Positions 15,860 to 35,457 of a DNA stretch of 64,000 bases are shown piece by piece. Each line of letters starts with the position of its first letter. Position 1 is the stretch's first letter. Where the stretch lies: the IMG/VR virus record IMGVR_UViG_3300049893_001984, positions 128,335-192,334 of that record; one strand, given 5' to 3'. The position numbers and the translations under genes were made by a program. The notes under the pieces are model-generated. The model was not told where the DNA came from. It did no database searches and worked only from the letters and a program-made list of their open reading frames with translations. The stretch is from a virus.

Positions 15860-16216
15860 TTATTCCATCGGGGGAGAGCCAGATACTTTGACACAACCTT
15901 GAGGCACATTTGGTTGTGTCGTCATATTGTACCCGGACATCTCCAGTTTCACACGGGCTTTTACCCCAGCGGACGGCTCTTGTCCAAACACATAATCAAC
16001 AGCCAGTTGTGTGAAACTCGGGGCGGTATTGAAATACCGTTCCGCAATTTCCACTTTTTCCGCATCGGTTTTGGCTGCCTTGAACTCGTCGGCGGCGGTT
16101 GTAGTTTTGACGTTGAAGAAGCTAACGGCTCTCTTCACGCGATCGTCAGTACATCCAGCCAGCCCCGCAACAACGAACATAACAACCAAAATACCCGTCG
16201 TCAACTTCTTCATCAT
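15860..16216 (-). CDS. Lipoprotein
   Basis: MKKLTTGILVVMFVVAG-LAGC lipobox. Confidence 0.75.
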   Translation of the reverse strand: MMKKLTTGILVVMFVVAGLAGCTDDRVKRAVSFFNVKTTTAADEFKAAKTDAEKVEIAERYFNTAPSFTQLAVDYVFGQEPSAGVKARVKLEMSGYNMTTQPNVPQGCVKVSGSPPME

Positions 16217-31823: not shown

Positions 31824-31831
31824 CTGATAGT

Positions 31832-31868
31832 AAAAGAAAAAGCACACGCCTTTTAGGGCGTGCGCTTT
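31832..31868 (-). terminator. Intrinsic terminator at convergence with terminase
   Basis: Minus strand GCGCACGCC/GGCGTGTGC (one G-U) followed by TTTTTCTTTT. Confidence 0.7.
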
Positions 31869-31894
31869 AACCTGCAGGGGAAACTTCCCCCTGC

Positions 31895-32254
31895 TCAACT
31901 CTTTGCCCGCGTGAAATGGTCGGCGGGCGCCGACATGGGAGGAATTACTGCGTCGTCTTTCGGAGTCCGAAGGCCCTGCGCCTTCTTCATCCGTTCGACG
32001 TGCTCCGCGTGTTCCTCCGAACGACGCTGAGCTTCGTGCTGCATGCGTTGCGAGTGCTCGTCACTGAGCTCCTGCGAACGCTTCAACACTGCTGAGGCGA
32101 GCAACGGCACAACCGCCGTTGCCATATCTTTAACTCCAGAAAGTACTGCCAGCTGCAGTTCTTTCTGTCCCTTGACTTGCTCGGCAAGGGCACCGATTGC
32201 GTTGCTCATTGTCTTTTGCGAGACAACGAGCCCTTCTTTTCTTTTCTTTCCCAC
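31895..32254 (-). CDS. Hypothetical protein
   Basis: 119-aa ORF. Confidence 0.6.
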   Translation of the reverse strand: MGKKRKEGLVVSQKTMSNAIGALAEQVKGQKELQLAVLSGVKDMATAVVPLLASAVLKRSQELSDEHSQRMQHEAQRRSEEHAEHVERMKKAQGLRTPKDDAVIPPMSAPADHFTRAKS

Positions 32255-32263
32255 ATTCCCTCC

Positions 32264-32476
32264 TCAGTATGGGCGCGTGCCCCGGATTAACTCTGAGGCG
32301 GCGTTTGCAAACGCCCGCCTTTGTTTCTGTGTTTTGAGAAGGAGCATAATTAAAGACTCCACTCCTAGCTCAAAACACCCGGCGATGACAATCCCAAGGA
32401 CGATGCCATGGGTTGCCATCATGTAACCTGTCACGGCCGCTTCCACGACCGCAACGACAAACGTAAATACGGCCAT
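32264..32476 (-). CDS. Small membrane protein
   Basis: Two hydrophobic segments, GGAGG SD. Confidence 0.55.
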   Translation of the reverse strand: MAVFTFVVAVVEAAVTGYMMATHGIVLGIVIAGCFELGVESLIMLLLKTQKQRRAFANAASELIRGTRPY

Positions 32477-32506
32477 TTTAGCGACCTCCTTGGGCCAAAA
32501 GTTTAA

Positions 32507-32594
32507 CCCCCCGGTGTGGGTTTATTGGTCTCTCTCGAGGGCCCTTTCGAGGAGTTTTTGGTGGTGTGTGGTTTACAGGCCGCACACCGGGGGG
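32507..32594 (-). other. Structured element downstream of tRNA-Ile2
   Basis: 12-bp stem CCCCCCGGTGTG/CACACCGGGGGG enclosing an inner CTCGA/TCGAG hairpin. Confidence 0.5.
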
Positions 32595-32647
32595 TATCTC
32601 TTACTACACATAGGCGTGGCAGGATTCGAACCTGCGACCTGGGGATT

Positions 32648-33356
32648 CCCGTTTGTGTGTGTTTCCACACTCCGTGGACTATATCATCGCCATACACTTT
32701 TCAGTGTTTAGGCGTCGGGAGCTTATGCGGTTATTAAGAGGACTTAACCTCTCCGCTAGTCTCTGCACCTTCCGCCGGTGTACCGGCGGCTCGGCTCAGT
32801 GTTGCCGTGTTTAAACCATACTTACGTGCCCATTTGCGAACAGCGTTGTCTGATACGCCAAAAAGCTTTCCAACAGAAACGACCGAGTTTTCACTCAGCA
32901 GCCTCTGCAAGCGTTCTTTTGATGGCCATTCAACCTTTCGCTGTTTGTTTCTGTAACACCCTTCAGAACAAAACTGCTTCTGCTTGTTCTGTAAGGTGTG
33001 ACCGCAAATACCGCACAGTTTTGGTTGTTTAAACGACGGGTTCACTGAATTCACCCGATTCATCCTATAGCTTTCGCATATAGGCGCACCAGAATTCATC
33101 CAAGCGTGGATCTTTGAGTGCTGGTCTGCGCTAACCACAAGGAGATTCTCTATCCTGTTGTTAGCTCTATCCCCATCTAAATGGTGCACAATCTCATCAT
33201 CACGGATAGACCGGCCTAGGTCTTTTTCCATGATAAAGATGTGTTCATAAACATAACCAAGCCAGTTGGCAGACTTCATTGCCTTTGGGTGGTCTGGTTT
33301 ATAAACAAGTCTGTACCCATTTAGAAACCTCACGCTTTTACTGAATTCTTTCATTG
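32648..33356 (-). mobile_element. Group I self-splicing intron (IC3, Azoarcus tRNA-Ile type), 709 nt
   Basis: P1 CTCAT/GTGAG with U-G at the splice site, P3 TCGGG/CCCGA, P4 TCAGTG/CACTGA, P7 GACTA/TAGTC, P8 GCGG/CCGC, P9 GTGTG-GAAA-CACAC, terminal G before AATCC. Confidence 0.93.
32734..33354 (-). CDS. Intron-encoded HNH homing endonuclease (HNH + Zn finger + HTH)
   Basis: YEH...VHHLDGDRANNRIENL...H..IH, CGIC..CSEGC, SVGKLFGVSDNAVRKWARK. ATG 33354 is 2 nt into the intron. Confidence 0.9.
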   Translation of the reverse strand: MKEFSKSVRFLNGYRLVYKPDHPKAMKSANWLGYVYEHIFIMEKDLGRSIRDDEIVHHLDGDRANNRIENLLVVSADQHSKIHAWMNSGAPICESYRMNRVNSVNPSFKQPKLCGICGHTLQNKQKQFCSEGCYRNKQRKVEWPSKERLQRLLSENSVVSVGKLFGVSDNAVRKWARKYGLNTATLSRAAGTPAEGAETSGEVKSS

Positions 33357-33400
33357 ATGAGTCCCTCGCTCTCACCGCTGAGCTACACGCCCCCTAAACA

Positions 33401-33464
33401 AGCTCGGCATGGGATTCAAACCCATCTGCACACGTTGTTACACGTGGCGTTTCTGAAGCCGAGC
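33401..33464 (-). ncRNA. tRNA-like element lacking a D-stem
   Basis: Acceptor GCTCGGC/GCCGAGC, CACGT/ACGTG arm with 6-nt loop, T-arm ATGGG-TTTGAAT-CCCAT. Confidence 0.55.
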
Positions 33465-33473
33465 GACCTCCGT

Positions 33474-33644
33474 CTACTTCTTCGCCTCCATAATGGCACG
33501 GCGAAGCAGTAACACCTTACCCGACCAGCTTTCGATCGAGTAGGTGATTTGCTCCCGTTGGAATCCAACCGCAGATCCGGCCGCCTTCTTCAGCTTGCCG
33601 AGTTTTGTCTCGGCGTCATACAACTCCCGCTCAACATTCGTCAT
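33474..33644 (-). CDS. Hypothetical 56-aa protein
   Basis: GGAGG SD before ATG 33644 (MTNVERE). Confidence 0.6.
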   Translation of the reverse strand: MTNVERELYDAETKLGKLKKAAGSAVGFQREQITYSIESWSGKVLLLRRAIMEAKK

Positions 33645-33670
33645 GTCTCCTCCAGGCCTTTTATCGTCCT

Positions 33671-33947
33671 GCCTAGGACACAAATTTCCTAAACAGCTTT
33701 TGGGGTGGCATGCTTCAGCGCCGTTAGGCTCCACATGCCACCCCTGGCAGCCAACCACCAGGTACGCCTGGGCGCCTAGTTTTCCGGGAGCTACCCCGGT
33801 TCAATCGTCGGTTAGGATCCGACTAGGGGGGCAGCCGACCCCCCGTGTTTCATGGCTCGTGGATGTTTTTGATCCCGTTAGCTTGTTTGCTCGGCGCTGC
33901 GGGATAGAAAATCAGGCTCAGCTTTGGATTTAATCGTTATCCTAGGC
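33671..33947 (-). ncRNA. Unassigned ~277-nt multi-stem structured RNA
   Basis: Closing stem GCCTAGGA/TCCTAGGC and six internal helices (see findings). Confidence 0.65.
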
Positions 33948-34025
33948 TCCTTTTGCCTTATTTTCCAGCGCCTCGGTCTTGTCTAGCGTTTTCATCCTTC
34001 TCTCCTTTTGCCTTTTCATCGTTTT

Positions 34026-34060
34026 GCCCCTTAAACTCGCCTTTTCGGAGTTTAAGGGGC
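34026..34060. promoter_or_regulatory. 13-bp perfect hairpin upstream of the RNA cluster
   Basis: GCCCCTTAAACTC/GAGTTTAAGGGGC, no U-tract on either strand. Confidence 0.55.
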
Positions 34061-34065
34061 CCAGC

Positions 34066-34581
34066 CTACAATCTGTCCACGTCGATGTGAGCGACGTAAC
34101 TGTCATTGTCGCTCACTTTGAACCTCGGCTCCTGAGCGCCGAAACCATCCGGCTGCTCGTCGGGGGAGCAACTCATTTCTTGCAGTGCCCCCTCCCTGGG
34201 ATAGAGCCCACCGTACGGCTCCGCCACCTTTTCAATATGCCTGAGAAAGGCGACGGCGGCTCTTCGGGATTGGAAATTCATATTCCAGTCATACTTCGAG
34301 TCTATGTTTGTGGTTGCCGAGACCACAAACCGACCCTTTTTGTCTTCGATGTCCAGGGCCTGTTCGTGGGCCTCTGACTCTTCCTTGTCTGCGTTATTAC
34401 ACGCAGAGCAAAGGTGTATCGTTTCGAATCCAAAGGAATCAGTTTCCCCCTGGACAACCAGCTCCGCTGGTTTATCGCAGAACTCGCACTGCTGCGGCTC
34501 CACTGTCTCTTTGATTCCACCCCCCCAATGGATTACTTTTCCATTGTCTTGAGGTATTCGGGCCAGTACTTTTCCTCTCAT
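34066..34581 (-). CDS. Hypothetical zinc-ribbon protein
   Basis: CEFC...CSAC, GGAGG SD. Confidence 0.6.
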   Translation of the reverse strand: MRGKVLARIPQDNGKVIHWGGGIKETVEPQQCEFCDKPAELVVQGETDSFGFETIHLCSACNNADKEESEAHEQALDIEDKKGRFVVSATTNIDSKYDWNMNFQSRRAAVAFLRHIEKVAEPYGGLYPREGALQEMSCSPDEQPDGFGAQEPRFKVSDNDSYVAHIDVDRL

Positions 34582-34609
34582 TTTACATTTCCTCCACCCA
34601 AAAAACGCC

Positions 34610-34670
34610 TTGCGAACAGTTAACCAAAGGTTAACCTCAACAAGTAATAATAACGCATTTTTGCGTTTAT
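34610..34670 (+). promoter_or_regulatory. Putative sigma70-like promoter overlapped by a palindromic operator
   Basis: TTGCGA-16-TAACCT, palindrome GTTAACC-AAA-GGTTAAC (34619-34635), second imperfect IR ATAACGCA/TGCGTTTAT. Confidence 0.4.
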
Positions 34671-34686
34671 TTTAGGTGGGCCAAAC

Positions 34687-35457
34687 ATGTCAAAATTGAC
34701 CAAAATAGCCATTTTTTGCCTATTTTTGACTACTTTTTCGGGTTGCCAGCTGGCTGGGAGCCAATCCAGGAGTAATCAGAACAATACAGTCAACCAAAGC
34801 CTGCCAGGCGTGGTTCCGGGCACTAGAAATGAGCCTGTACCCCCTGATGTTGTGACTCCTTTGAAGAGTGAGATCCTTCAATCCGCTAACAACACACAGA
34901 ACCAACTTTCGGGCCTTTTGAACGCATCTGTGTCAAAATTGTCTGAAAAGTTGACTGGTGTGGAAGCAAATCTTTCCGAGCTGGTTAAGGTGACTGCAAA
35001 TACCAATATTTCGTCGAATTTAGAGCTGAAAAACCAGATTTCAGCGGCTGTAACCGCTGTGGCTGACCTGAAGGTCGAAATTAAGGCAACCGCCACCTTT
35101 ACGAACGAAATGACCGCCCACATAGCCCGTTTGGAGGCTATTATGACAAATAATGTCAACGGGCAGGCTGGCGTCTACAATAAGTTGGATTCCATGCAAC
35201 AGGAGTTCAAATCAGCTGCTGGAAGGGACATCCAGAACAATTACCTGCCGAAAGAAGCTGTCAAGATCATAGAGTCCAGCAATTGGATGCTTCTTGGCAT
35301 AATTTCTACATTTTGCGGCCTTGGGCTCAGTGTTTTGACAATCGCTTACCGAAACGCACGCCACCGTGAGAATTTGAACTCAAAACTGCTGATGGCGTGC
35401 CTTGCCTCTATGGAGCCTGAAAAAGCCGAGGCCATTCAGAAATCAATAAGTCTCTAG
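34687..35457 (+). CDS. Lipoprotein with coiled-coil body and C-terminal TM helix (u-spanin-like topology)
   Basis: Lipobox FSGC at residue 20, heptad-rich middle, TM WMLLGIISTFCGLGLSVLTIAY. Confidence 0.6.
   Translation: MSKLTKIAIFCLFLTTFSGCQLAGSQSRSNQNNTVNQSLPGVVPGTRNEPVPPDVVTPLKSEILQSANNTQNQLSGLLNASVSKLSEKLTGVEANLSELVKVTANTNISSNLELKNQISAAVTAVADLKVEIKATATFTNEMTAHIARLEAIMTNNVNGQAGVYNKLDSMQQEFKSAAGRDIQNNYLPKEAVKIIESSNWMLLGIISTFCGLGLSVLTIAYRNARHRENLNSKLLMACLASMEPEKAEAIQKSISL

Follow-up and report, generated by a model that had tools for sequence, protein, structure and literature searches.

A 277-nucleotide (nt), hairpin-rich element on the minus strand of an uncultured phage genome, at positions 33671-33947 of the 64,000-nt stretch analyzed here (hereafter the window), is tentatively read as a structured intercistronic leader or spacer. 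It would be co-transcribed with its neighbors and act in cis on the stability or processing of the part of the transcript carrying a 56-residue open reading frame (ORF) and transfer RNA (tRNA) genes, possibly persisting as a stable fragment. Its helices are present in the sequence, it is non-coding, and its minus strand gives a better fold than its plus strand; no known RNA family matches it, and the genomic island that holds it is absent from relatives of the phage. The initial annotation of the locus, made from the DNA letters alone, had proposed an unassigned, highly structured RNA of this length. The absence of a family, the non-coding character of both strands and the better fold on the minus strand bear this out in part, but a discrete, functional, highly structured 277-nt RNA is not established by them. 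The window comprises bases 128335-192334 of a 192,334-bp IMG/VR record (IMGVR_UViG_3300049893_001984; CheckV completeness estimate, 92%), which the terminase, HNH and other phage hallmarks in Pfam and PHROG scans identify as a large tailed phage. Among public sequencing runs, the sequence occurs in one DNA run, from a freshwater sediment metagenome and probably the source sample, whose contigs gave almost no coverage and no variants; no RNA run containing it is listed.

All of the helices proposed initially were recovered at their place on the minus strand, read from 33947 to 33671. The closing helix P1 (GCCUAGGA/UCCUAGGC) extends to 10 bp with one G-U pair. The other helices are AUCCCG/CGGGAU (hairpin Pa), GGGGGG/CCCCCC (Pb), GUCGG/CCGAC (Pc), CCGGG/CCCGG (Pd), CCAGG/CCUGG (Pe) and an 11-bp helix that extends to 12 bp (Pf). 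Each of the 59 pairs in the resulting model is canonical, 55 being Watson-Crick (93%) and 4 G-U. The minimum free energy (MFE) computed with RNAfold is -115.2 kcal/mol on the minus strand, a z-score of -4.45 against 200 dinucleotide shuffles, none of which is as stable, whereas the plus strand reaches a z-score of -2.69. Four of the hairpins, Pb, Pc, Pd and Pf, are robust local structures with pair probabilities of 0.79-0.97. Transcribed as RNA, the element would thus present these four hairpins, with the 10-bp helix able to enclose them end to end.

The element lies in a non-coding gap of ~420 nt, of which ~208 nt are strictly uncalled by one public gene caller. Coding potential was assessed by codon usage, using a log-odds score trained on long ORFs of the same phage, in-frame chunks of which average 0.23 per codon. 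By this measure the 171-residue gene upstream (0.25) and the 56-residue ORF downstream (0.27; more exactly 0.268) are coding-like, and positions 33947-33760 score negative or near zero in all three minus frames, indicating that they are non-coding. A 129-residue ORF spanning the element on the plus strand was rejected as a gene, with a score of -0.11 per codon and an implausible protein composition. Immediately upstream, a 17-codon ORF (MKTLDKTEALENKAKGA) scores 0.49 per codon, though its region is purine-rich. The public gene caller predicts a 54-residue version of this ORF with the same UAG end in P1, as well as an 86-residue form of the 56-residue ORF that starts inside Pf; both extensions score ~0.09 per codon, which is ambiguous. 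The 17-codon and 56-residue ORFs share a frame, and readings that would join them through an intron, ribosomal bypass or recoding were all rejected because the CCTAGG repeats at the two ends of the element are 269 nt apart, the TAG is soon followed by a TAA, and a group I core is lacking. As 269 is not a multiple of three, excision between the repeats would leave the flanking ORFs unjoined in frame.

The genes and tRNA-like genes flanking the element are all on the minus strand, which is the coding strand for most genes around it. The initial annotation had placed the element in a tRNA cluster. Default ARAGORN and Rfam scans of the window report two tRNAs, both distant, at 15.7 and 48.5 kb, but a D-armless tRNA-like element, followed after 8 nt by a split tRNA, lies ~200 nt downstream on the same strand. 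The former was not called by ARAGORN in default mode; the latter was missed both by default ARAGORN and by the Rfam tRNA model and was detected in the intron mode of ARAGORN. Its intron, ~600 nt downstream of the element, matches the Rfam group I model (Intron_gpI, RF00028) with 65.3 bits, and the ORF within it matches HNH_3 and phrog_15471. ARAGORN places the intron such that the anticodon would be CGG; we read the gene as a probable tRNA-Met/Ile2(CAU), because the group I rules (a 5' exon ending in U and an intron ending in G, the omega-G) fix the junctions.

The pattern TTGACA-N(15-18)-WATAA has a single match in the window, which is the sigma-70-like site upstream of the 171-residue gene. 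A consensus promoter scan of 32300-34700 reported no promoter-like site. Past the tRNA, at ~32590-32520, a long GC hairpin that leads into a U-rich run appears terminator-like on reading. The terminator scan found no terminator directly after the element and did not call the strong hairpin just past the stop of the 171-residue gene as an intrinsic terminator. From this arrangement we infer one transcription unit from ~34690 to ~32520, with the element as an intercistronic segment. Its order would be the promoter (~34693-34667), the 171-residue gene, the hairpin, the element, the 56-residue ORF, the D-armless tRNA-like element, the tRNA(CAU) with its intron and HNH endonuclease, and the terminator-like hairpin. 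As tRNAs in a transcript imply processing by RNase P and RNase Z, the tRNAs downstream suggest that the transcript of the element would be so processed. Most likely, the element would shield or delimit the downstream part, with the 56-residue ORF and the tRNAs, during this processing, and it may survive as a stable by-product, like the tRNA-cluster RNAs rnaC and rnaD of phage T4. A leader or spacer acting in cis is favored because the helices are canonical, the fold is better on the minus than on the plus strand, the stretch is non-coding between coding-like ORFs, the neighbors share its strand, and the window holds a single upstream promoter match. The features of the locus are collected in Table 1.

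Table 1. Features of the element and its surroundings (window coordinates)
Feature	Position	Strand	Remarks
277-nt hairpin-rich non-coding element	33671..33947	-	Ends defined by closing helix
P1 5' strand (GCCUAGGAUA)	33938..33947	-	Pairs with 33671-33680; holds UAG stop of 17-codon upstream ORF
P1 3' strand (UGUCCUAGGC)	33671..33680	-	26 nt upstream of AUG of 56-residue ORF
Hairpin Pa (AUCCCG/CGGGAU)	33872..33905	-	22-nt loop with GCCGA; pair probability ~0.5
Hairpin Pb (GGGGGG/CCCCCC)	33826..33844	-	Loop UCGGCUG; probability at least 0.79
Hairpin Pc (GUCGG/CCGAC)	33807..33823	-	7-nt loop AUCCUAA; probability 0.97
Hairpin Pd (CCGGGG/UCCCGG)	33784..33799	-	Probability 0.91
Hairpin Pe (CCAGG/CCUGG)	33758..33771	-	Loop CGUA; not robust, outside high-probability helices
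Hairpin Pf	33702..33744	-	12-bp stem (11 Watson-Crick and one U-G), inner GCC/GGC stem; probability 0.97
17-codon upstream ORF	33942..33995	-	AAGGAG-type ribosome-binding site; stop UAG within P1 5' strand
AAGGCAAAAGGAG, copy 1	34002-34014	-	Ribosome-binding region before start of 17-codon ORF
AAGGCAAAAGGAG, copy 2	33947..33959	-	Abuts first base of P1
171-residue gene with CxxC motifs	34066..34581	-	Upstream of element; homologues ~50% identical
Strong hairpin without U-tail	34026..34060	-	Just past stop of 171-residue gene; MFE and centroid fold
56-residue ORF	33474..33644	-	GGAGGAG ribosome-binding site; downstream of element; orphan
D-armless tRNA-like element	33401..33464	-	Perfect 7-bp acceptor stem and T-arm; read from sequence
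Putative tRNA(CAU) split by 709-nt group I intron with HNH endonuclease ORF	32611..33392	-	ARAGORN intron mode
Sigma-70-like promoter TTGACA-N16-AATAA	34667..34693	-	Upstream of 171-residue gene; pattern match
2.9-kb island between terminase gene and 256-residue plus-strand gene	31824-34686		Lineage-specific

The element was compared with all 4227 families of Rfam 15 using cmscan, with the gathering score applied to the whole window and E values of up to 10 allowed for queries of 1001 nt and 301 nt, the latter run with the laxest filters. No family matched it at either setting, in agreement with its initial description as unassigned. The best listings at lax E, archaeal C/D-box and miRNA models, lie far below their thresholds and represent noise; the RF00028 match to the neighboring tRNA intron served as a positive control. 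The search rejects, as far as they are included in Rfam, raiA, GOLLD, ROOL, HEARO, OLE, RNase P, transfer-messenger RNA (tmRNA), signal recognition particle RNA, 6S, Y RNA, riboswitches, group I and II introns (RF00028 gives no match to the element at E up to 10) and small ribozymes. Signatures of tmRNA, RNase P and signal recognition particle RNA had been reported as lacking, which Rfam and ARAGORN confirm: ARAGORN and Rfam detect no tmRNA, ARAGORN having covered both the window and the genome, and for RNase P RNA there is neither an Rfam match at E up to 10 nor, by eye, the P4 consensus (GAGGAAAGUCC / ACAGAA). A resemblance to the raiA motif that had been suggested initially did not hold up, as no match appears at E up to 10 to this family, which we take to be among those in Rfam. 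The raiA RNA, a multi-stem structure of ~200 nt, is of a similar order of size, but it is a chromosomal motif of Bacillota and Actinomycetota and is not known as a phage motif. Like the msr/msd region of retrons with its a1/a2 repeats, the element is flanked by inverted repeats, here the 10-bp end-to-end repeat. However, Pfam and PHROG scans found no reverse transcriptase domain in the adjoining ORFs, and RVT_1 (PF00078) is absent from the whole 192-kb record, although it is matched in control genomes; this removes the retron, diversity-generating retroelement and group II readings. The element is a member of no described family, while its kind, a structured non-coding phage element beside tRNA genes, is not new.

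Several observations weigh against a functional structured RNA, beginning with the degree of its stability. The description of the element as highly structured stands with respect to shuffled sequences, all 200 of which it surpasses, but is tempered by comparison with the phage itself. Forty-five random native 277-nt minus-strand segments, folded against the same kind of dinucleotide shuffles, have a mean z-score of -1.11 (standard deviation [sd] 1.42), and two of them (about 4%) reach -4.3 or lower. When MFE is regressed on GC content over 280-nt windows of the whole genome, the element lies ~2 sd below expectation, as calculated from the fitted coefficients, and the nearest fixed 280-nt window has a z-score of -1.37; both the group I intron and the terminator cassettes of the early region are more extreme. 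Given this distribution of native z-scores, the element ranks roughly among the top 2-5% of the genome for stability and is not an extreme outlier. Its boundaries were, moreover, picked in the initial annotation to fit the closing helix, and a scan of 64 kb on two strands would be expected to meet several windows like this. The closing helix itself has a pair probability of about 0.5 in isolation. Once the flanks are added, P1 competes with other CUAGG pairings and is not robust in longer transcripts: the unpaired probability of its 5' strand is 0.19-0.34, and its 3' strand remains paired when the 5' strand is blocked (probability unpaired, 0.02), implying that alternative partners are available. 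Likewise, with the 3' flank included, the strands of Pe pair instead with GGCCUGG beside the Shine-Dalgarno site downstream. Tetraloops of the GNRA and UNCG types are absent from the element. Its mirror image on the plus strand has almost the same stability (-92.0 versus -94.1 kcal/mol), which leaves the strand evidence weak and means that the helices would also exist as inverted repeats in DNA; the terminator scan also lists the inverted repeat of Pb, as a terminator-like site of the plus strand. Finally, no homologue of the element, and hence no covariation, was found in any collection searched (see below), and the closest relatives do without the island and thus without the element.

These figures lend weight to the notion that the stretch has no selected function and is a fast-evolving intergenic filler of an accessory island, whose chance GC-rich inverted repeats were picked by eye from 64 kb. 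We hold this to be unlikely on balance, though by no means negligible. The two native segments with comparable z-scores against a native mean of -1.1 and the position only ~2 sd below the regression are what it would predict. So are the orphan status of both the element and the adjacent 56-residue ORF, the absence of the whole island from the closest relatives, and the presence in one relative (L004) of a 370-nt GC-rich non-coding gap between the terminase and the 256-residue-gene homologue that shows no significant structure (z-score, -0.93). It accounts less readily for seven helices within 277 nt of a clearly non-coding gap, for a closing inverted repeat that runs four pairs past the CCTAGG palindrome, and for the better fold of the minus strand.

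The same helices raise the converse possibility, which we regard as unlikely, of a discrete trans-acting non-coding RNA (ncRNA), representing a new ~280-nt family with a closed multi-hairpin domain and loop-loop contacts, released from a tRNA-type operon. It would work with the tRNA-like RNAs nearby, e.g., by serving as a decoy or scaffold that counters tRNA-targeting defenses of the host. The 10-bp helix joining the 5' and 3' ends of the element is consistent with such a product, as is a weak promoter-like site noticed by eye (TAGACA-N17-AATAAG), from which transcription would start at the first base of P1. The possible pseudoknot of the initial annotation belongs here: the complementarity of the Pb and Pa loops (UCGGC/GCCGA) is real and worth -9.1 kcal/mol, but 6% of shuffled loops equal it. 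A second complementarity, of the Pc loop to UUAGGA in the 3' tail, amounts to -5.9 kcal/mol and is equaled by 2.5% of shuffles. The motif GAGCC occurs four times, the maximum of any 277-nt window of the genome, though it was chosen post hoc. The adjoining tRNA-like element and tRNA, and the precedent of the large phage ncRNAs near tRNAs, namely GOLLD, ROOL and the T4 RNAs, also speak for such an RNA. Against it are the lack of any relative in our searches, which means that there is as yet no family, the lability of P1 in longer transcripts and the absence of a terminator after the element. More doubtful still is the fullest version of this idea, wherein the element would be the founding and single member of a new ~280-nt class of phage ncRNAs with kissing loops and four GAGCC motifs, expressed from an operon driven by the host polymerase alongside a D-armless tRNA mimic and the tRNA that carries the intron, and acting in trans, e.g., as a decoy or scaffold against host tRNA- or RNA-directed defenses.

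The termini of the element also allow it to be viewed as DNA. AGGA lies immediately outside both ends of the 10-bp inverted repeat GCCTAGGATA...TGTCCTAGGC, as a 4-bp target-site duplication would, and of the 16 CCTAGG sites in the genome, no two others besides those at the two ends of the element fall within 277 nt of each other. These features would suit a non-autonomous mobile element inserted between genes, comparable to the miniature inverted-repeat transposable elements (MITEs) of bacteria. Such elements (e.g., Correia elements and ERIC) are similarly 100-300 bp in length and intergenic, with terminal inverted repeats, a short flanking direct repeat and a strong fold when transcribed. However, MITEs are multicopy, whereas the element has one copy in the phage and none in GenBank phages, PLSDB plasmids or, for its end sequence, IMG/VR (the host genome lying outside the search). 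Instead of forming one long foldback, its interior consists of separate hairpins in a row, and the flanking match, noticed post hoc, has a chance of 1 in 256. We therefore find a MITE-like origin improbable. Other palindromic hexamers cluster in the element besides the two CCTAGG sites (GGATCC, GGCGCC and GCATGC), and CTAG is present four times. Taken together with the 93% Watson-Crick pairs, the nearly strand-symmetric structure and a terminase gene 2 kb away, this clustering might indicate an origin of replication or priming, a site for packaging or an array of protein-binding sites, in which the palindromes would function as duplex or extruded hairpins. We consider such a role highly improbable, given that there are no iterons or AT-rich unwinding region, that the GC skew does not turn at the element, and that the element is absent from relatives possessing the terminase and the 895-residue gene.

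The location of the UAG stop of the 17-codon ORF in the 5' strand of P1 raises the prospect of a translational switch, in which translation of this ORF, equipped with a good ribosome-binding site, would rearrange the fold and thereby alter how accessible the ribosome-binding site of the 56-residue ORF is. The proximity of the P1 3' strand to the AUG of that ORF and the four CCWGG-type segments permitting alternative pairings beside its ribosome-binding site fit this scheme. Nevertheless, with the P1 5' strand forced open, the accessibility predicted for the site stays about the same, at ~0.6 (0.59 and 0.59 for read-through transcripts, 0.65 and 0.59 for those starting at P1, and 0.72 without the element). 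A ribosome-coupled switch is thus not supported, and we consider it highly improbable; searches yielded no homologues of the ORF or the leader for comparison. The ribosome-binding region of the 17-codon ORF and the sequence abutting P1 share a 13-nt direct repeat, AAGGCAAAAGGAG, of which there are exactly two copies in the 64 kb (0.02 expected), 55 nt apart; similarity between them beyond the 13-mer is not significant.

Relatives of the element were sought at several levels. Neither DNA searches nor a single-sequence covariance model built on its 59 pairs (R1) detected a further copy in its own genome, where it is single-copy, and blastn in a setting for distant matches gave none in GenBank phages and PLSDB plasmids. 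Across loci L002-L005, 80 terminase-related IMG/VR loci, the loci of 171-residue-gene homologues and five full related records (41-211 kb), R1 scored at most 11.8 bits, on trivial hairpins only. With filters off on the syntenic slot of L008, it returned only hairpin noise below 8 bits. Thus, the RNA element is absent from the loci that encode homologues of the 171-residue gene. Viral contigs were scanned with a junction 18-mer, a Pf-loop 20-mer and a 5'-end 18-mer, metagenome contigs with a loop/junction descriptor and genome contigs with a two-loop descriptor, giving 3, 0, 0, 10 and 4 matches, respectively, which is the number expected by chance. None of these is supported by R1, bar one trivial 5.9-bit hairpin elsewhere in L090. 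All four genome-contig matches are from Burkholderia/Caballeronia, and one that was read adjoins the start of a reverse-strand ORF. The 56-residue ORF is equally isolated, with no relatives among 1.84 billion representatives or in IMG/VR.

The phage as a whole is less so: its terminase has hundreds of homologues, the best of which is 63% identical, implying that there is no close relative of the phage in 5.8 billion protein clusters. By tblastn, the related loci keep the terminase, the 256-residue plus-strand gene, the 895-residue gene and a 442-residue gene, whereas the 171-residue and 56-residue genes and a 119-residue gene have no match in about 85 such loci. The terminase is separated from the homologue of the 256-residue gene by ~0.9-1.2 kb in L008-L010, versus 2.9 kb here. 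Because relatives lack the island genes and have this shorter spacing, we assign the element to an apparently lineage-specific accessory island, comprising the 171-residue gene, the element, the 56-residue ORF, the D-armless tRNA-like element, the split tRNA(CAU) with its HNH endonuclease and the 119-residue gene. A different island occupies the same slot in L004, L005 and L007. The gap in L004 (12606-12974, minus strand) is without a called gene, contains CCAACCACGGA twice, is not significantly structured and is unrelated in sequence to the element. In L003 (~16020-16065, minus strand), a different minihelix of an acceptor stem and T-arm is found between the terminase and 895-residue-gene homologues. 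This variable slot may be a recurrent site of tRNA mimics. One homologue of the 171-residue gene lies on a contig of 184,855 bp (L088; NCBI GCA_034680565.1) with very sparse gene calls, gaps of 0.8-3.2 kb, and no tRNA or Rfam match; an alternative genetic code or poor gene calling could explain this.

Back to back with the promoter-like site upstream of the 171-residue gene stands a promoter/operator cassette of early type, further copies of which occur at the left end of the genome. This end (L006, genome 1-9000; 1523-5374 and 2309-5763) has eight copies of a ~55-nt terminator-like cassette, formed by TAACTGATAGCAAAAGAAAACGC and a hairpin, and four to five copies of ATAATAACGCA...TATTTAAGG, which resembles an early promoter combined with an operator. 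Of the latter, one copy is located ahead of the 256-residue gene (window 34648-34657, plus strand). The left-end cassette windows are the most stable folds of the genome. Also near the left end of the record, positions 911-1141 form a tandem array of CAGCTCCTGCC-type units with 11-nt and 33-nt periodicity, amounting to 13 overlapping copies of a 66-nt reference within overlapping ORFs on both strands.

Among known systems, an instructive parallel is offered by rnaC and rnaD of phage T4 ("species 1 and 2"), which are phage-encoded non-coding RNAs without a known function, co-transcribed with tRNA genes in a region holding homing endonuclease genes. Their paired 5' and 3' ends yield a processing-resistant product. 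The element is like them in being non-coding, with pairable ends and with tRNA genes and a homing endonuclease nearby. Yet the T4 RNAs are ~120-140 nt long, are experimentally observed and map to the distal end of their cluster, whereas the element is ~277 nt long and known from sequence alone; no relation between them was found in sequence or structure. The analogy drawn initially to GOLLD (RF01998) and ROOL (RF03087) holds for genomic context and extends no further, there being no Rfam match. These are multi-hairpin RNAs without a known function, from phages and prophages and often beside tRNA genes (10.1101/2024.12.08.627333). They differ in being 500-800 nt long and widespread, with strong covariation and solved multimeric structures, while the element is half their size or less and an orphan. 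Closer in kind are the candidate structured RNAs from IMG/VR (Fremin et al. 2023, PMC10690425), intergenic phage motifs of which many are tRNA-like or upstream of genes, and which come from the same source. What defined these candidates was that they recur and covary across contigs; the element does not recur in IMG/VR by the searches used here and would therefore not be findable by that approach.

The element is thus represented by a single sequence of an uncultured phage, obtained from one metagenome of freshwater sediment, and has only moderate statistical support. If a discrete RNA is indeed produced from it, it would be a compact addition to the few large tRNA-associated ncRNAs of phages, such as GOLLD, ROOL and the rnaC and rnaD RNAs of T4. 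An island that combines it with a tRNA mimic and a tRNA carrying a homing intron offers a hint of RNA-based counter-defense in this phage.

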